Of a stretch of 64,000 nt of DNA, positions 56,135-64,000 are shown piece after piece. The notes under the pieces are model-generated. The model was not told the DNA's origin and did no database searches. It was given only the letters and a program-made list of their open reading frames with translations. The DNA is from Myxococcales bacterium (GTDB lineage Bacteria; Desulfobacterota; Binatia; HRBIN30), in contig JBBILD010000012.1 of the NCBI GenBank assembly GCA_037445065.1, forward strand, positions 53,624 through 117,623, read 5' to 3'. Numbering within the stretch: the first letter of the stretch is position 1; each line of letters starts with the position of its first letter. Made by a program: the position numbers and the translations under genes.

Positions 56135-56827
56135 TCACGGGGACACGGTAATGACGTGCAGGCTACTGGCCACCCCATCGCCGCTGCGAGCGTTGTTGCA
56201 GTTCGCCGCAACCGCAGCCACCCAAAGCCGATACGTTCCCGCTTCCGGTGCCCTCCAAGTGCCCCACCATTCGAACGGGGATTCCACGAACAACCGCCGC
56301 GTTAGCTCGACGGTGTCTGCCTCATCCACGGCGCCATCGCCGTTCGCGTCGCCCAACTGGCAAGCCGCCGCCGACATCTCTGCACTCGCCGCGCCCGCCA
56401 CGCGAACGAGGTCCGCCACGCTAGCGACTCCATCCCCATTTATGTCGGTGCGGTGCTGGGGGTAGCGGTGGGTAACTTCTTCCTCTTCCACCCTCAGCCC
56501 CGCACTCCTACCGACGAGCTGCCCGTCCTCTGCGGCCAAGTTGAGTCCTGCCGCGACCTGGCGGTTCGAGGCAGGCCAGACGAGCACCCTCCATACGACC
56601 TCCTCTCCAATTCGGGCGTTCGCAGGGGCCACAAGGTCGACCCGAGGTGGATTGCCGCCGCTGTGGCATTGGTCGGCGCAGGTCACACCGGCCTGCCCTG
56701 AGACACCCGTCACACCAGTCTGGTAGGCCGAAACTGGCGCGAGCCATGTGACTCCGATCCAGAAAAGGAGCGAGGCCGTCCGACACACAAGCGACGCCGC
56801 CCGAGGGAGCCCTGGTCCAAGACTCAT
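56135..56827 (-). CDS. Secreted Reeler/choice-of-anchor-V-like protein with CX3CH motif and internal dockerin-like insert
   Basis: Signal peptide, SG..G.TCADQCHSGG, THxxP, two DxNGDG repeats and WRAP..AAN..SGD. Confidence 0.6.
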   Translation of the reverse strand: MSLGPGLPRAASLVCRTASLLFWIGVTWLAPVSAYQTGVTGVSGQAGVTCADQCHSGGNPPRVDLVAPANARIGEEVVWRVLVWPASNRQVAAGLNLAAEDGQLVGRSAGLRVEEEEVTHRYPQHRTDINGDGVASVADLVRVAGAASAEMSAAACQLGDANGDGAVDEADTVELTRRLFVESPFEWWGTWRAPEAGTYRLWVAAVAANCNNARSGDGVASSLHVITVSP

Positions 56828-58644
56828 GGCTGCGGCGGTAGATCACACTGGCCGCCTCGACAGCGGCCCGGGCCGGTGCTCCGGTTCGGGCATAAGATCC
56901 CGTCCGGTGCCGGCTCGCTGCGGCAACCGGCTTGCGTGTAAAAGTCGTAGGTACACGCATCACCGTCGTCGCATGGCGACTCCGGGCAGTCCGCCGCGTC
57001 CGGCAAGCACCAGGCGCTCACGTCACTAGGTGAGAGGGAACTCAGGTAGGCATCGCTGTTGGGATTCGAGCGGTCGCCGATCCCAGAGCCGTAAAAAATC
57101 TCGCCGTCGAGGACGGTGACCGCAGAAGCGACCGGCGCGAAGGGCGGTAGTATGCGCAAGACCTCGCCTGTCTCAGCATCGCGCACAAACACTCCGGAAA
57201 ACAAACTCCCCATAAAGACCAGCTCTGGGGTTGCCGTGGCCGCCGCGTAGCTCGGCAGGGCGGCGCGATCTCCCCAAAGGATGCTGCCGTCATGAGCAGC
57301 GAGGCCATGGGCGGCTGGCCGCTGCGGACGATTGAAGCTCTCCCCGATGGCAGTGCTGAAAAAGATCCTGCCCGCGCCCACGGCAGCGCTCCCAATGATT
57401 CCCCCGATCGCTCCACCCGCAACCACTTGAGTCTGCCAATACGGTTCGATGCGGCCGGTAAGAGCATTTCGCCCGTCGCGGTCGAGTACGTAGTACGTTC
57501 CATCCTTGTTCCCCACACCCACGACTTCGCGGCGTGCGCCGGCAACCTCGATTTCGAACAGATTCGGCACTGCGCCAAAAGCCAAATCTTGGTTGTCCAC
57601 TTCGCGGGGGCGCCAGATCCACTTGACGTTGCCGTCGAAGTCCAAGGCGATCAAAGCCTCGTCGAGCGGCGGCATAGGCGGGAACGGATCCACCGTTTCC
57701 GGATCGTCGTCGGTATCGCAATTACTGGAAGCGATGTAGATCGTACGCCGCTTCCCATCCACGGCGAACGACGACCACACGTTACCGCACGCGGTCCAGG
57801 TGCGCTCGAAGTTACAGCCCGGGCGTGTCGCGAAGAAATCATCGGGTAATCCCAGCTCAGCCGCACTGTGATACCCGTCGAATCGAAAGATACGGTCCGA
57901 CGGAAGCGGCCGGCAGGTCGCACCGAACGGCCGCTGCTCCAGGTCCACATACCAAACGAGAAAACCCTCACGTGCGTCCACAGCAAACAGTCCGCCTTTC
58001 CCCGGCTCGCGGTCGTTCACGTCCATGCCGAACACAATGCGGTCGCCCGCTAAGGCAGGGCTCGCCTCGATCTGATTGCGCTCCACGTTGGGGCCGCAGG
58101 TCGTGCAACCTGTTCCCGCATCGAACTGCCAGCGCAAAGCCCCAGTGGCCGCGGCCAAACAATAGAGGGTCATCCCGCCGCCCACGTACACGCGCATCTC
58201 CCCATCGATCTCGGCAACCAGGGGAGAAGACGCCTGCGGGTACGAGGCCCCGGGGTGTGGTTTCATCCGAAACGACCACAGCCGACTGCCGTTGCTAGCG
58301 CGAAGGGCGTACAGGTGGCCATCCCACGAGGGGATGTACACCACCTTGATCCTTCCCTCGCCTGCCACGTCCACCCAAGCAACCGCCGGTGAAGCCGTTA
58401 CCACAGCGCCCGTGCGGTACGTCCACTTGGGCCGCAGCAACCCCACGGTGCTACGAGTCAGCCTGCGTTCCTCCGAGTTGAAGAACGCGCGCTCCGGGTT
58501 CGCGCCGTACATTGGCCAGCCGGCGGCGAGGCGTGCCGAGGGTGAGGAATTTTGCCGAGGGGGCTCCGAGTCGTCACCGCATGCCGCCAAAAGGCAAGCT
58601 GCCGTCGCCAACAAGAGGCCCACTGCTGCACTGGATCGGTGCAC
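56824..58644 (-). CDS. PQQ-binding-like beta-propeller lipoprotein (polyvinyl-alcohol-dehydrogenase-like)
   Basis: Lipobox LAAC, WPMYG, repeated LYAL.A..G...W blades, VWSS, DLAFG and C-terminal CDDGDACT repeat; start estimated at GTG 58644. Confidence 0.78.
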   Translation of the reverse strand: MHRSSAAVGLLLATAACLLAACGDDSEPPRQNSSPSARLAAGWPMYGANPERAFFNSEERRLTRSTVGLLRPKWTYRTGAVVTASPAVAWVDVAGEGRIKVVYIPSWDGHLYALRASNGSRLWSFRMKPHPGASYPQASSPLVAEIDGEMRVYVGGGMTLYCLAAATGALRWQFDAGTGCTTCGPNVERNQIEASPALAGDRIVFGMDVNDREPGKGGLFAVDAREGFLVWYVDLEQRPFGATCRPLPSDRIFRFDGYHSAAELGLPDDFFATRPGCNFERTWTACGNVWSSFAVDGKRRTIYIASSNCDTDDDPETVDPFPPMPPLDEALIALDFDGNVKWIWRPREVDNQDLAFGAVPNLFEIEVAGARREVVGVGNKDGTYYVLDRDGRNALTGRIEPYWQTQVVAGGAIGGIIGSAAVGAGRIFFSTAIGESFNRPQRPAAHGLAAHDGSILWGDRAALPSYAAATATPELVFMGSLFSGVFVRDAETGEVLRILPPFAPVASAVTVLDGEIFYGSGIGDRSNPNSDAYLSSLSPSDVSAWCLPDAADCPESPCDDGDACTYDFYTQAGCRSEPAPDGILCPNRSTGPGRCRGGQCDLPPQP

Positions 58645-58709
58645 GAAGCGGGCGTCTACTCCAAAGGCGGCGCACAGGTCAATCCGCAACGCGCCCAATG
58701 GCGGTGCCC

Positions 58710-59306
58710 CTAGAACCAGTGAAACAGGGCGAGAATGCCGAGCCATACCAAGTCGAGAAATGCCCAATACCAAAGCAGGCCGGTCCAACGGGCCGCAACG
58801 TTTTGCCTTCGCTCCTCGCCGAGAGCGACCCACACGGCAAGCGCCATCCCGGCCAGCACGTGGGCAGCGTGCAAACCAGTGAGGAGGTAGTAAAACTGCC
58901 AGAACGGTCCCCGCCCCGGGTGCAAACCGTGCTCGAGATCCTGGCTGTAACCGTACCCTTTCAGAGCGAGGAACACGGCCGCCCAGAGTATTCCCATCCA
59001 GAGCCACACTCGCCGTTGCCAGACGCTGCGCTCTGCACTGCGTTTGCCCATGTATAAGCTCGCGCTGGCATAAAGTAAAACGACCGTGGCAACGTAAAGG
59101 TGCGTCCAACTCCACAGCTCCCGGCCGTCATCCCAATTGATCAGCCGCGTGGCGAAGAACGAGTAAAGCGCGAGGAGCGTCCCGAAGAGGGTCGCCTCCG
59201 ATGCGAGGAACCATGTCATTCCGGTGCGCACCAGGGAGGTCGCCTGCGAACTGTGCGCGGCTTCCCAGGGCTGACCGGAGCAAGCGCTACCCGCTCCCGC
59301 CTTCAC
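58710..59306 (-). CDS. coxC: Heme-copper oxidase subunit III
   Basis: WFLASEATLFG, FYYLLTGLHAAHV and YWAFLDLVW; GTGA overlap with the subunit I stop. Confidence 0.9.
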   Translation of the reverse strand: MKAGAGSACSGQPWEAAHSSQATSLVRTGMTWFLASEATLFGTLLALYSFFATRLINWDDGRELWSWTHLYVATVVLLYASASLYMGKRSAERSVWQRRVWLWMGILWAAVFLALKGYGYSQDLEHGLHPGRGPFWQFYYLLTGLHAAHVLAGMALAVWVALGEERRQNVAARWTGLLWYWAFLDLVWLGILALFHWF

Positions 59307-60970
59307 ACCGTGTCCTCCTGCCATTGTGGGACGGGCCTCTTCTCGCCTCCCTCGACCGCTCGATACACGTATGGCGGACCGACCACACGCGCTGTGGAAG
59401 AAAAATTTTCTACTGGAGGTGGTGAAGGCACGCTCCATTCCAGGGTTGTGGCTCCCCAGGGATTCGCCCCCGCCTGCGGACACTGGCGATGTGCGCCGAC
59501 CAAAGCCCAGACGAACACCAATTGGCTCGCAAACAGGACGCCCGCACCAATGGTCGCGATCACATGTAAAGGCTGCAGCGGCTCGAGGAACGGATAATAG
59601 AAGAGGCTGGGGATGCGCCGCACGTGCCCGTGCACGCCGAGCCAAAACAACGGCAGGAAGACGAAATGGAACGGTACAAACGTCAGCCAAAAATGCAGCC
59701 GCCCCAGACGCTCGTCGAGCAGGCGGCCGAACATCTTCGGATACCAAAAGTAAATCCCCGCGAAGCCCGCCAGAATCACCGAAGGGAACAAAGTGTAATG
59801 AAAGTGGGCGACCACGAAGTACGTATCGTGGAGGTGAACGTCGAGCGCTGCCGAGCCCAAAAAGACGCCGGTGACTCCTCCAAGGAGAAACGCGGATAAC
59901 GTGCCCGTCGCAAAGCACATCGCGGTGGTCAGGCGAAGCTGAGACCGCCACAACGTCCCGAGCAAGGCGAAGACGACGATCGCAAATGGCACCGAGATGA
60001 CGATCGTTGTGATGCTGAAGGGCGTCGCCAAGCGAACGTTCATCCCGCTCACGAACATGTGATGCGCCCAGACGAGAAAGCTCAGCACGCCGCCCAGCAA
60101 CAGCGATCCCACAATCAGCCACGGTGCGGGCAGGCCACGGCGGGCGAAGGTCGGGAACACTTCGAGCAGGATCCCCAATGCAGGGAGGAGAATCACGTAA
60201 ACCTCGGGGTGACCAAAAAACCAGAACAAATGCTGCCAGAGCAAAGGGTCTCCGAGCTTTGCCGGAGAGAAAAACCCTGCCTCCCAGTGGCGGTCGAACC
60301 AAAGCATCAAAATCGCCGCCATCAGGGGCCCAGCCGAGAGCAAAAACAGCACCGCGGCGATGCACTGGGTCCACACCATCAGTGGCAGCCGGCTCCAGGT
60401 GAGCCCCGGAGCACGGAGATTCCACGTCGTGGTGAGCACGTTCACACCGCTCATCAATACCGCAACAAAGTCGAGGAACACCGCCGCCAACCACAAGTCG
60501 AAGCCAAGGCCAACACCGGAAAACCTGTACTCCGCCGAGAGCGGCGGGTAGTTGGTCCAGCCGGCGGCTGCAGGTCCTTCAGGAACGAACCAGGAGGAGA
60601 CAAGGAGCACACAAGCAAGAAAGAAAATCCAAACCGAGGCTCCGTTGAGGCGCGGAAACGCCATGTCGTTTGCCCCGACCATCAGCGGCACCAGGTAGTT
60701 CCCAAAGCCGCCGAGCAGGACCGGCATGGCAACGAAAAACATCATGATTGTACCGTGCATGGTGAACCAAGCGTTGTACTGCGGAGGCTCGACGACGCCG
60801 TAGAGGGGCAGTGGCGCCTCGGGGAAAGCCAATTGCCAGCGCATCACCAGGGCGGAAATCCCCCCCAAAACGGCCATCGCGCCGCCGATCGCGAGGTACT
60901 GCTTCCCAATGACCTTGTGGTCCGCCGAAAAAACGCGTCTTAGAAAGCGCAAAGCCTCCCCCTTCGGCAA
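59303..60970 (-). CDS. coxA: Heme-copper oxidase subunit I (A1-type motif)
   Basis: DHKVIG, TMHG, DMAFPRLN, GWTNYPPL, WFFGHPEVY, WAHHMF, HDTYFVVAHFH and RR; helix VIII reads VPFAIVVF. Confidence 0.95.
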   Translation of the reverse strand: MPKGEALRFLRRVFSADHKVIGKQYLAIGGAMAVLGGISALVMRWQLAFPEAPLPLYGVVEPPQYNAWFTMHGTIMMFFVAMPVLLGGFGNYLVPLMVGANDMAFPRLNGASVWIFFLACVLLVSSWFVPEGPAAAGWTNYPPLSAEYRFSGVGLGFDLWLAAVFLDFVAVLMSGVNVLTTTWNLRAPGLTWSRLPLMVWTQCIAAVLFLLSAGPLMAAILMLWFDRHWEAGFFSPAKLGDPLLWQHLFWFFGHPEVYVILLPALGILLEVFPTFARRGLPAPWLIVGSLLLGGVLSFLVWAHHMFVSGMNVRLATPFSITTIVISVPFAIVVFALLGTLWRSQLRLTTAMCFATGTLSAFLLGGVTGVFLGSAALDVHLHDTYFVVAHFHYTLFPSVILAGFAGIYFWYPKMFGRLLDERLGRLHFWLTFVPFHFVFLPLFWLGVHGHVRRIPSLFYYPFLEPLQPLHVIATIGAGVLFASQLVFVWALVGAHRQCPQAGANPWGATTLEWSVPSPPPVENFSSTARVVGPPYVYRAVEGGEKRPVPQWQEDTV

Positions 60971-60994
60971 ACCGCACCCACTGCCGTCATCCGA

Positions 60995-61681
60995 TCATCT
61001 GTTGACCACGGCCGCATCGTGCGCTGCGTCGGCCTCCCACTCCTGCGCTTGCCATTCTCGATAATCCTGGGGGCTATGCACGATCAGGAAGCCACGCATG
61101 GTGTAATGCGCAAACCCACACAGTTCCGCACACGCGATCTCGAATCTGCCCTCTCGCTCGAGCCGTAAGGACACCGACGTTTGCCGCCCCGGCAACACAT
61201 CCTGTTTCAAGCGTGCGGCCGGCACAAAGAAGCTGTGGATGACGTCCTCGGACTGGAGCACAACTCTCACGTTCGTACCACTCGGCAGGTGCAATTCACT
61301 GTCCAAAGAACGGTCATCGTCCGTGCCAAAGCGCTGGTCGGGCCCTGGGTAGACAAAACGCCAGCGGAACTGTTTGGCTACGGCTCGTACCTCTATCGCC
61401 GCGGGTGGCAATTCCTCCTTCATCGCTCTCCACACCGGCAGACTGTATGCCTCGATCGCGAAATCGCAGGCCAGCACAGCCACACCCAGTCCCAGCAAAA
61501 CCGCACCAGGCCTGTGGCCGTTTCTGCTCTGGCCATCCGCGCCTGGTCGCCGGAACCGCCACAAACAGAACACAAGGAAAGCCTGTGCGCCGACAAACCA
61601 CATTCCGGTGATGGCAAGCACGAGCCAAAACAGAGCATCTACCTCACCGGCCACGGTCGTAATGCGCAGAGGCCACTCCAC
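60995..61681 (-). CDS. coxB: Heme-copper oxidase subunit II (CuA)
   Basis: Two TM helices, QFRWRF.Y, DVIHSF and CAELCGFAHYTM; no cytochrome c domain. Confidence 0.93.
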   Translation of the reverse strand: MEWPLRITTVAGEVDALFWLVLAITGMWFVGAQAFLVFCLWRFRRPGADGQSRNGHRPGAVLLGLGVAVLACDFAIEAYSLPVWRAMKEELPPAAIEVRAVAKQFRWRFVYPGPDQRFGTDDDRSLDSELHLPSGTNVRVVLQSEDVIHSFFVPAARLKQDVLPGRQTSVSLRLEREGRFEIACAELCGFAHYTMRGFLIVHSPQDYREWQAQEWEADAAHDAAVVNR

Positions 61682-61802: not shown

Positions 61803-62258
61803 ATGAGCGAAGTCGGGCATTTTGCGCGCATTCTGCTTCCGGTTGATTTCTCCCAGCACTGCGGCGATGCCGCACAACACGCGGGATGGTTTGCACGCGT
61901 GGGTGAGGGCCAGGTTCACCTCGTGCACGTCATCGCCAATCCGCTCGACGACCTTTACGAGACCAAAGAAGTCCCACCTCTGGAGGTTGTGGACCACGCG
62001 GAGGCGAAGGCGCGAACTCTTCTCGAGGATGTGGCGCGCAGCTGCCTGCCGCCGGGGGTCCCTTATCACCTACACCTCCGCCACGGCGATCCGTTCGAAA
62101 AAATCATCGCGGTCACTGCAGAGGTCCAGCCGCAACTGATCGTTCTTTCCACTCATGGGCGGGGCGGGCTGCTGCATTTGGTCATGGGGAGCGTGGCAGA
62201 AAAGATCGTCCGCTACGCCCCCTGCCCCATTTTTATCGTCCCCAGACGGCGCCACTGA
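61803..62258 (+). CDS. Universal stress protein
   Basis: ILLPVDFS, GDP, THGRGG..GSVAEKIVR.APCP. Confidence 0.93.
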   Translation: MSEVGHFARILLPVDFSQHCGDAAQHAGWFARVGEGQVHLVHVIANPLDDLYETKEVPPLEVVDHAEAKARTLLEDVARSCLPPGVPYHLHLRHGDPFEKIIAVTAEVQPQLIVLSTHGRGGLLHLVMGSVAEKIVRYAPCPIFIVPRRRH

Positions 62259-62295
62259 ACAGCACCCGGGAGCAAGCGAAAAAATCTTTTGCATG

Positions 62296-62325
62296 TTGAC
62301 GTAAGGAAGGGCGCCGTTGTAGCTT
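62296..62325 (+). promoter_or_regulatory. Candidate sigma70 promoter
   Basis: TTGACG-N18-TAGCTT in an AT-richer spacer; in-frame ATG at 62334. Confidence 0.4.
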
Positions 62326-62357
62326 CGTGTGTTATGGGGGATTCAACCAACTTGGGC

Positions 62358-64000
62358 ATGATGGTTTTGCGCTATGAGAGCTCGCCGCGCCAGGGCCGCG
62401 GCTGCTGCCTGGCTGCCCGTCTGCGCGCCTGGAGCATGCCGTTGGTCCTGTGGGTGTTCGCGGTTTCGCCGGCACTCGGCACCACCTTCTCCCTCCCGTC
62501 GGGGAGCGGGCCGCGCGGCATCGTCAGCGGACCCGACGGGGCCCTGTGGTTCACCCAACAGGCGAACAAGATTGGCCGTATCACAACCTCCGGAACGATT
62601 ACCGAGTTCGCCATTCCTACGGATCTTTCGTCGCCAGACGCGATCACGTTGGGGCCGGACGGCAATCTGTGGTTTCTGCAGACGGCGGCCAACAAAATCG
62701 CACGCATCACTCCCGCCGGGGTGGTCACCGAGTTCCCCGTGCCGACCAGCTCCGCTGGGCTGGCGGGCATCGCCGCGGATTCGGCCAACGATCGCATCTG
62801 GTTCACCGAGTTTGCAGCCAACAAGATCGGCTTCATTGGCGTGAGTGCGCCGAACACGATCACGGAGCTGTCGCTGTCCGTTCCCAACTGCAAGCCGTAC
62901 TTCGTGACGGTCAGCGGTGGTGTTGCGTGGGTCACTTGCAACGGGGCAAACCGCGTCCTCCAAGTGCCGCTGAACGCGCCCTTTGTCATTACAGAGTACT
63001 TGGTGCCGGCGCCGGCCATTGGCCCTACTGGGATTACCGCTACCCCTGCCGGGTTGATTTGGTTTCTCACCGCCAACCACGCCGCCCGACTCGATCCCAG
63101 TAAGGCACCGTCAGACCCGACGGCAATCACCCTGTTTGGGTTACCCTCGGCCGGAACGGGTCCGTTTCAGATCATTTTCGGTCCGGAAAGCGCACTCTGG
63201 TTCACAGAACAGAGCGCGCACCGAATTGGGCGCATCGGCTTGAGCCCAAACGTCTCGATCACTGAGGCGAGCCTCCCAACCGGAGTTCTGGGTCCGCGCG
63301 GAATTGCAGGAGGCCCCGACGGGAACATCTGGGTGGCGGCACAGTCCTCCAACCACATCGTGCGGCTGGAATTGCCTCTGCCGACTCCGACGCCAACTCT
63401 CAGCCCCACCCCGTCCGCCACAGCGACGGCAACCGCAACCGCCACTCCGACTCCCTCTTCCACCGCCACGGCGACTGCCACGACCACCCCGACACCGACA
63501 GCGACGGCCACTTTCTCGCCAACCCCAACGGGGACCAGTACACCCACAGCGACCGCGACCGCGACGTCCACCGCTTCCCCTACCCCCACGCACACACCGA
63601 CCAGCACATCCACGCCCACGCCAACACCCACGGATACGCCGACGTTCACTCACACGCCGAGTGCCACACCCACCAGTTCCTTTACCCCAACAGAGACCGC
63701 CACGGTGACCCCGACTCCCACGCCATCTGACACGCCGACCTGGACCCCGACAGATTCACCGACACCTGCGCCGACTCCGACCGAGACTGCCACAAACACA
63801 CCGACGGTTACGGCCACCGATACACCAACGGAGACACCCACCCTCACGCCAACAGAGACGCCAACCGAAACCCCGACGGAGACGCCTTCGCCAACCGCAA
63901 CAGCCACAGAAACGGCGACGCCAACCGAGACCGAGACGCCGACTTACACACCCACTTCTACCCAGACTCCGACCCCGACAGAAACCGAGACCCCGTCTCC
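62358..64000 (+). CDS. Secreted Vgb-lyase-like beta-propeller with a very long Pro/Thr linker; runs off the window and is absent from the ORF track
   Basis: Repeated PxGIxxGPDGxLWFT...NKIGRIT..G..TEF blades; no stop before the window end; start at 62334, 62358 or 62361. Confidence 0.87.
63381..64000 (+). repeat. Low-complexity Pro/Thr (TPTxTPT) coding repeat, over 200 codons
   Basis: Continuous ACx/CCx codon run encoding [20 protein letters not shown]...TETPTETP. Confidence 0.9.

Follow-up and report, generated by a model that had tools for sequence, protein, structure and literature searches.

An A1-type cytochrome oxidase lineage without K-channel residues, marked by conserved acidic and polar positions in subunits I and II

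We analyzed a cytochrome oxidase operon (coxB, coxA and coxC) on a 64,000-nucleotide stretch of contig JBBILD010000012.1 (positions 53,624 to 117,623, forward strand; assembly GCA_037445065.1) from a Myxococcales bacterium placed by GTDB in the Binatia (HRBIN30). This whole stretch is called the window, and coordinates below are positions within it. The A1-type subunit I encoded here has lost the K proton channel's residues, and it belongs to a clade that shares this loss and carries its own conserved acidic and polar residues in subunits I and II. On balance, we lean towards an O2-reducing cytochrome c oxidase in which the K path would be sealed, an altered D channel would supply the protons, an Asp-Ser356 pair would replace K362 and T359, and pumping would be reduced. 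Residues are numbered as in Rhodobacter sphaeroides unless stated otherwise. The genes and positions concerned are the following.

60995..61681, minus strand: coxB, subunit II (228 amino acids, GTG start; Pfam COX2; an identical 228-residue protein is deposited)
59303..60952, minus strand: coxA, subunit I (549 amino acids; Pfam COX1; TIGR02891 below cut-off)
58710..59306, minus strand: coxC, a single short subunit III (198 amino acids; Pfam COX3)
59975..59986, minus strand: helix VIII codons for Phe in place of T359 (59984-86) and for Val in place of K362 (59975-77)
60164..60166, minus strand: Leu at S299, a lost K-channel position
60458..60472, minus strand: upper D channel in helix IV, with Asp replacing S197 (60470-72) and Val replacing S201 (60458-60)
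59993..59995, minus strand: Ser at A356, invariant in the clade, at the predicted subunit I/II interface
59792..59794, minus strand: Thr at V423, adjoining the heme a ligand H421 and part of the clade signature
61451..61465, minus strand: subunit II helix 2, a buried Asp (61463-65) and a Glu four residues on (61451-53)
61499..61504, minus strand: the subunit II E101 position, here Ala/Val

A preliminary description of the window had placed a Phe at the channel Thr and a Val at the channel Lys. Read on the minus strand, the two codons are indeed TTT (59984-86) and GTC (59975-77), and residues 240-343 of subunit I align with residues 270-373 of R. sphaeroides without a gap, at an offset of +30. 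Helix IV aligns at the same +30 offset, also without gaps, and since these alignments share one offset the residue numbering is firm; misalignment or a frameshift as the cause of the K loss was ruled out by the gap-free alignment. The substitutions are F329 for T359, V332 for K362, L269 for S299 and A335 for S365. In terms of the A-type K channel of Paracoccus denitrificans (Lys354, Thr351, Ser291 and Tyr280; PMC3084760), Val, Phe and Leu occupy the first three positions and the tyrosine alone remains. The active site is kept as previously described, with the six His ligands H102, H284, H333, H334, H419 and H421, the cross-linked Y288 and, in the GHPEVY motif, the terminal Glu of the D channel (E256, equivalent to E286). 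The same description had the D channel preserved, which holds for seven of the eight residues listed for A-type enzymes (PMC3084760): D132, N207, N121, N139, Y33 and S142 are present (P. denitrificans 124, 199, 113, 131, 35 and 134), and S201 (P. denitrificans Ser193) is a Val. The S201 equivalent is Phe in most clade members, with the acid at S197 one turn off.

In subunit II, no acid was found at the E101 position, so that the K-channel entrance Glu is absent as reported; E101, W104 and P108 are all gone, and the best PDB match for this segment, 6ci0_B, itself has an Ala there. The CuA ligands (His, Cys, Glu, Cys, His and Met) are intact, being invariant in 37 of 37 aligned sequences, and the coxB product has no fused cytochrome c. 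The AlphaFold model of subunit I (predicted local distance difference test, pLDDT, 87) superimposed on 3om3 with a Z-score of 46.0 and a root-mean-square deviation of 2.0 Å over 500 residues. This chain, the K362M mutant structure, gave the best-scoring alignment, and its match was tied with those of wild-type chains. A B-family enzyme does not fit the presence of the D channel and of Val, Phe and Leu at the alternative K-channel positions, nor does a nitric oxide reductase (NOR) fit Y288, which is invariant and not replaced by a glutamate ligand. The window protein also has Ser at A319 and G327, to which we tentatively map the table columns for the 'KC-channel' (a class without K354 and with polar residues at cbb3-equivalent helix VII positions, according to Degli Esposti); Ser at these positions is frequent in K-bearing enzymes too (68/267 and 107/267).

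Lys at K362 was found in none of the 120 best homologues and Phe at 359 in 119 of them. Since the best homologues share the K362/T359 change, it is not a matter of chance, and a lesion confined to a single genome was ruled out on the same grounds. Among 706 distinct subunit I cores, left after removal of duplicates and short rows, K362 is present in 267 and an acid at 197 in 373, and no core combines the two. The acid-197 sequences formed a clade with a support of 1.0 in FastTree (41 of 189 rows) and of 100 in the Shimodaira-Hasegawa-like approximate likelihood ratio test of IQ-TREE in fast mode (26 of 64 rows), the mostly empty row P0167 being present in one tree and dropped, with P0237, from later ones. 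No member of this clade in the trees carries K362. A shared K-less helix VIII of this kind is what the preliminary description had looked to phylogeny for, and its proviso that a proper alignment or close homologues might restore the Lys was not borne out. In both trees its position is within the K-bearing A1 enzymes that are encoded in two-COX3 operons (support 99.8-100), so that it descends from within family A, and by these trees the K loss is ancestral to it.

The clade comprises 371 distinct sequences: 233 with Phe359, including the window protein (hereafter Phe-type), and 138 with Glu361 (Glu-type). Match names on the Phe-type side include Binatia, Deltaproteobacteria, Poribacteria, NC10, Nitrospira, Limnocylindria and Alphaproteobacteria, and on the Glu-type side Myxococcota, Bdellovibrionota, Gemmatimonadota and a cultured Puniceicoccaceae. 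Puniceicoccaceae K14 (L014), which is in culture, has cbb3 and bd oxidases beside its clade member. Of the 201 genomes sampled from the class to which the window belongs, 28 had a Phe-type enzyme, and all 246 matches in plasmid records were below 60% identity. Glu361 as the ancestral replacement of K362 was ruled out, the earliest branches on the Glu-type side lacking it. K loss is frequent elsewhere, occurring in many unrelated lineages among 150 representatives (50% identity). An acid at 197 also occurs in P0203 and P0237, K-less sequences that fall outside the clade; two cases are too few to make an argument for convergence.

A K-less group with LAHPEVY in helix VI (L224, P0123, P0161), which matches Elusimicrobia rows of the published table, is possibly sister to the clade, with 90-92 support in IQ-TREE and no recovery by FastTree; genome G037 carries an enzyme of this group plus a Glu-type one. 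A separate acidobacterial K-less A1 lineage (L035, L075, L135, L155, L164, L193, L203) has Ala359, Thr356 and no acid at 197, and is nested among K-bearing enzymes.

Columns 197, 242 and 356 had been used to define groups elsewhere in the analysis, which makes counts at them circular; the conservation counts were therefore taken from a group defined by identity (n = 378, including seven K-bearing outsiders). An acid, Glu or Asp, stands at 197 in 232/239 sequences of the Phe-type group and in 138/138 Glu-type sequences, Ser at A356 in 233/240 and 138/138, Thr at V423 in 228/240 and 136/136, and Arg at 343 in 220/240 and 138/138. The sequences that lack the 197 acid or Ser356 are the seven outsiders. 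D132, N207, H284, E286, Y288, H333, H334, H419, H421, R481 and R482 are invariant in all 378. An additional Glu at position 390 in helix IX was seen in 124 of 138 members of the Glu-type subclade.

The signature extends to subunit II. An Asp in helix 2 is present in 25/25 Phe-type and 38/38 Glu-type subunits II and in 0/109 K-bearing ones. Four residues from this Asp, on the periplasmic side, Phe-type sequences carry a second acid (25/25) that Glu-type sequences lack (0/38), and a His at +8, nearer the cytoplasm, is found in 38/38 Glu-type sequences. Compared with K-bearing enzymes, helix 2 has an extra turn, which leaves an uncertainty of four residues in how deep the Asp lies. E101 is kept in 14/25 Phe-type and 9/38 Glu-type subunits II, compared with 109/109 K-bearing ones. 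The loss in both subunits, as first described, holds for the window copy but carries less weight than first put, because E101 is kept by many relatives; across the clade it is relaxed and not uniformly lost.

A model of the two-subunit complex scored 0.90 against 0.00 for the best control, a mark reached by 116 of 157 solved pairs and 2 of 215 mismatched pairs; its runs share at least 93% of contacts, with a partner pLDDT of at least 83. As coxA and coxB products are a textbook pair, passing this mark shows no more than likeness. The predicted interface includes D79 and E83 of subunit II and, in subunit I, S326 (A356) and position 361. Because the listed pairs 334 (subunit I) with 71 (subunit II) and 330 with 75 set the helix register, Asp79 is predicted to lie about level with Ser356 (326), facing helix VIII.

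Nineteen of the 28 Phe-type genomes (those outside an earlier family sample) were searched for heme-copper and bd oxidases. In G132 (99% complete, 40 contigs) and G197 (94%, 400 contigs), PF00115 matched the Phe-type enzyme alone; both genomes lack a bd oxidase and contain heme A synthase. Beyond the Phe-type enzyme, G278 (97%) held only pieces that we take to be eNOR-like, G265 an additional match scoring like cbb3 and G209 fragments; in G006 (100%) it is the only A-family enzyme, but bd is present. The Glu-type enzyme was confirmed by sequence in 16 of 41 genomes of one Gemmatimonadota family and was the sole match in four of these, three of them without bd (G051, G078 and G079, the latter two with nearly the entire genome on one contig). 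A clade member is thus the only heme-copper oxidase, without bd, in five genomes. Because of these genomes, we favour O2 reduction, the simplest reading, over peroxidase or NO chemistry, and the different substrate that had been entertained at first is disfavoured, several near-complete genomes having a clade member as their one recognisable terminal oxidase. A Glu-type enzyme was also the sole heme-copper match, without bd, in L006, a record titled Klebsiella pneumoniae whose label is doubtful.

From these sequence facts, conservation patterns and gene distributions we infer the proton steps as follows. Reduction of O2 to water is likely retained by this CuA-type oxidase. The old K path would be sealed by its hydrophobic residues, and cytoplasmic protons would enter through the D channel modified at 197 and 201. 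S197 is close to E286 in R. sphaeroides, and an acid at 197 may be an extra protonatable group just below Glu286 that lets the D channel serve the reductive steps normally fed by K. Namslauer and colleagues are said to have found in 2007 that the S197D mutant of R. sphaeroides turns over more slowly and without pumping. The polar site formed by the subunit II Asp and Ser356 beside Tyr288 would stand in for K362 and T359, and may buffer charge or protons at the tyrosine. Pumping would then probably fall below four protons per O2.

Several points weigh against this reading. The K362M mutant of R. sphaeroides is fully blocked in oxidase turnover (PMC7601700), so that supply through the D channel would need an unproven fix. 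The contact between the Asp and Ser356 rests on helix register and not on a listed pair. As the signature arose once, its co-occurrence with K loss is a single event, and 66 other K-less cores of the 706 have no acid at 197. In 14 of the 19 Phe-type genomes another match scores as A-family (by score only). A gene missing from a metagenome assembly is not proven to be absent, and a search for alternative oxidase (0 of 5) was uninformative as its positive control gave no signal. Finally, the window protein departs from the other Phe-type enzymes at 24 of the 210 positions that they conserve.

The same acids can be read in another way, which we consider unlikely. The enzyme would still reduce O2, and its two reductive-phase protons would be drawn from the periplasmic side, with relay to Ser356 and Tyr288 by the Asp and the second acid; this would amount to an inverted K channel in which charge separation for those protons is given up. 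Both acids are found together in all 25 Phe-type subunits II and are turned toward subunit I in the model, and Phe359 would shut access from below. Glu-type enzymes have no second acid (0/38) but a His at +8 (38/38) and Glu361 on the cytoplasmic side, so that the two sets of features are mutually exclusive. Against this, the acids could be structural, for instance paired with the clade's Arg343, and the uncertainty of four residues in the depth of the Asp in the longer helix 2 applies here too. A combined form seems similarly doubtful: Phe-type enzymes would be plugged by Phe359, with the tyrosine fed from the periplasm and the acid at 197 retuning the D channel, and Glu-type enzymes would have a rebuilt cytoplasmic path made of Glu361 and the subunit II His.

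The state of preservation of the window copy was also analyzed. Its genome has four heme-copper subunits I, and no bd oxidase was found in it. A Glu-type paralog on C15, 52% identical, without K362 and with Glu at 361 and at 390, is encoded in an operon (C15:74576-79640) of di-heme cytochrome c, coxB, coxA, coxC, subunit IV and a second coxC. C16 carries a canonical A2 enzyme with the Lys and E101, which answers the earlier question of a canonical oxidase elsewhere in the genome, and C39 a B-family enzyme 25% identical to the window copy. Across six related genomes, pairwise ratios of non-synonymous to synonymous substitution rates (dN/dS) were 0.055-0.125 for the window copy (14 of 15 pairs computable), whereas the Glu-type paralog gave 0.016-0.060 and the A2 paralog 0.009-0.062. 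These values are rough because synonymous sites are almost saturated. Amino-acid identity was 65-85% for the window copy, compared with 91-97% and 90-99% for the two paralogs, the Glu-type one being as conserved as the A2 enzyme.

A functional clade with a redundant window copy in slow decay is a reading to which we give little credit. It draws on this lower identity and on a dN/dS several times that of the paralogs, on the absence of subunit IV and of the second subunit III, lost in all six genomes, on the missing E101, W104 and P108 of subunit II, and on the start of coxA, which is deposited as TTG at 60952 in a reading frame open back to 60970, with an upstream ATG out of frame. Against it, the frame is intact in 6/6 genomes across saturated synonymous divergence (dS 1.4-3.7), dN/dS never exceeds 0.125, all ligands and the complete clade signature are kept, as are 74 of 85 family-conserved sites compared with 76-79 in other clade members, and a 97%-identical relative has the same 549-residue coxA call. 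On this comparison, the window copy is maintained by purifying selection, partly relaxed relative to the paralogs, and is, as far as its genome indicates, an accessory, faster-evolving oxidase beside three others. The initial proposal of an adapted variant and not decay therefore suits the lineage, which is old, K-less throughout and equipped with invariant new polar residues; for this copy it has to be qualified, selection being purifying at rates several times above the paralogs. The out-of-frame ATG, at 60990, lies 38 bases 5' of the TTG and off by one base, roughly where coxA begins in relatives (window 60950-60995).

A peroxidase role had to be weighed because the oxidase activity that K362M loses is not accompanied by loss of its peroxidase activity (PMC7601700), and most Phe-type genomes, including this one with three others, have another oxidase; a cytochrome c peroxidase-like or NO-handling enzyme running only the D-channel half of the cycle is nevertheless the least probable reading, given the sole-oxidase genomes in both subclades, the invariant Tyr288 (missing from characterised NORs; PMC11214002) and three CuB His, the absent FeB glutamate, and no conserved peroxide- or NO-pathway neighbour among 37 loci.

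Among known systems, the closest are the A1-type aa3 oxidases (R. sphaeroides 1m56 and 3om3, P. denitrificans 1ar1, Mycobacterium smegmatis CtaD 7rh6), with which the window enzyme shares the fold (Z 46.0), the heme and CuB ligands, Tyr288, Glu286, D132, N121, N139, N207, Y33 and S142, and a CuA subunit II. Unlike them, it has no S299, T359, K362, S365 or E101, a hydrophobic residue at S201, and instead an acid at 197, Ser356, Thr423 and buried acids in subunit II helix 2. B-family ba3 of Thermus thermophilus and the window enzyme each have one sequence-recognisable proton-input channel, K-like without D in the former and D without K in the latter (for channel roles, see PMC7196763, PMC6934443 and PMC8509429).

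The clade nests among two-COX3 oxidases, that is, A1 subtype a-III or the 'Gemmatimonadetes' subclade of Degli Esposti, whose operons we take to be those called 'coxMNOP-like'. Two-COX3 operons correspond to subtype a-III (PMC6431628, PMC4013037), and these groups are listed with a K channel 'yes' or 'generally yes' (PMC8239418). The clade has no K channel, and the window operon has one COX3 gene, so that neither the doublet nor the canonical K channel of the subtype is found here. Two COX3 genes were present at 31/38 K-bearing loci of the two-COX3 type, 19/19 Glu-type and 14/25 Phe-type loci.

K-less A-family enzymes, several A1 lineages included, have already been tabulated as 'KC', 'hybrid' or 'modified' (PMC8239418; preprint 10.1101/2020.03.01.968255), with rows for acidophilic iron oxidisers, CyoCAB, Elusimicrobia, Methylacidiphilum, Bacteriovorax and bacterium HR19 in the supplementary table of PMC8239418. 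They share with the window enzyme an A-family active site, a hydrophobic residue at K362 and, often, the loss of E101. In the accessible rows of that table, most keep Ser or Thr at 359 and none has the L/F/V/A pattern of the window; the HR19 row (F299, T362, F359, S365) shares Phe359 and might be a relative, and the columns include none for position 197 or for the subunit II Asp. In the open literature searched, neither the 197/356/subunit II Asp signature nor any biochemistry of the clade was found to be described. K loss in family A is neither rare nor unrecorded, and what appears to be new is the clade signature.

The coxC start overlaps the coxA stop at a GTGTGA junction. A promoter scan found 0 against 1.0 expected. 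GC content at third codon positions of the window copy is 0.748 compared with 0.72 +/- 0.045 for the genome, and this unremarkable value ruled out a horizontal newcomer with odd codon use. Next to coxB lies the following gene, in an arrangement common to the window and five close relatives.

61803..62258, plus strand: Usp (universal stress protein) gene, divergent from coxB (Pfam Usp; synteny)

Directly 3' of coxC, a PQQ-like (pyrroloquinoline quinone-like) beta-propeller gene and a choice-of-anchor V/dockerin-like gene (56135-58710, minus strand) are probably not part of the oxidase, because their synteny is limited to the five close relatives. On the other side, a virginiamycin B lyase-like propeller protein is followed by a long Thr/Pro repeat (62289-64000, plus strand) that extends past the window.

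Across the clade's loci, the only conserved functional neighbour found beyond the oxidase subunits was a small membrane protein with a Cys-Pro-x-Cys motif, to which 17/20 Glu-type loci add a multi-heme cytochrome c gene upstream. Usp, CBS or PAS/sigma-54 regulator genes stand beside several Phe-type operons (L001, L117, L119, L127, L361, L362, L366, L368), an uncontrolled observation that carries no claim about low-oxygen regulation, and molybdopterin reductase genes beside two. Several relatives (L237:2720-4222, L239, L243) carry a divergent C-family-like subunit I with His-Asp in helix VI, and G027 and G278 carry, alongside the K-less oxidase, subunits I with HSSQQ or HPSQQ in helix VI (L232:1381-3156, L356), presumably eNOR-like. 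In the single-contig genome G032 (L233 / L249), the K-less oxidase is intact and the canonical A2 gene is split over several frames, by assembly error or decay.

The need of A-family oxidases for two proton channels has long been a puzzle, and to our knowledge it has been studied almost only with inactive point mutants. The clade is a large natural A1 lineage without K-channel residues, in phyla that are non-acidophile judging by match names, and in some bacteria a member appears to be the sole terminal oxidase. This is less surprising in view of the K losses tabulated for many lineages and recurrent in this sample. The invariant replacements, Glu/Asp197, Ser356, Thr423 and the subunit II Asp, give a short list of candidates for function, and if the inverted K channel were true, the Phe-type and Glu-type pair would amount to a natural experiment on the purpose of the K channel. 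The standard A-family yield of four pumped protons per O2 should also not be taken for granted in many uncultured bacteria from soil, marine and hot-spring settings.

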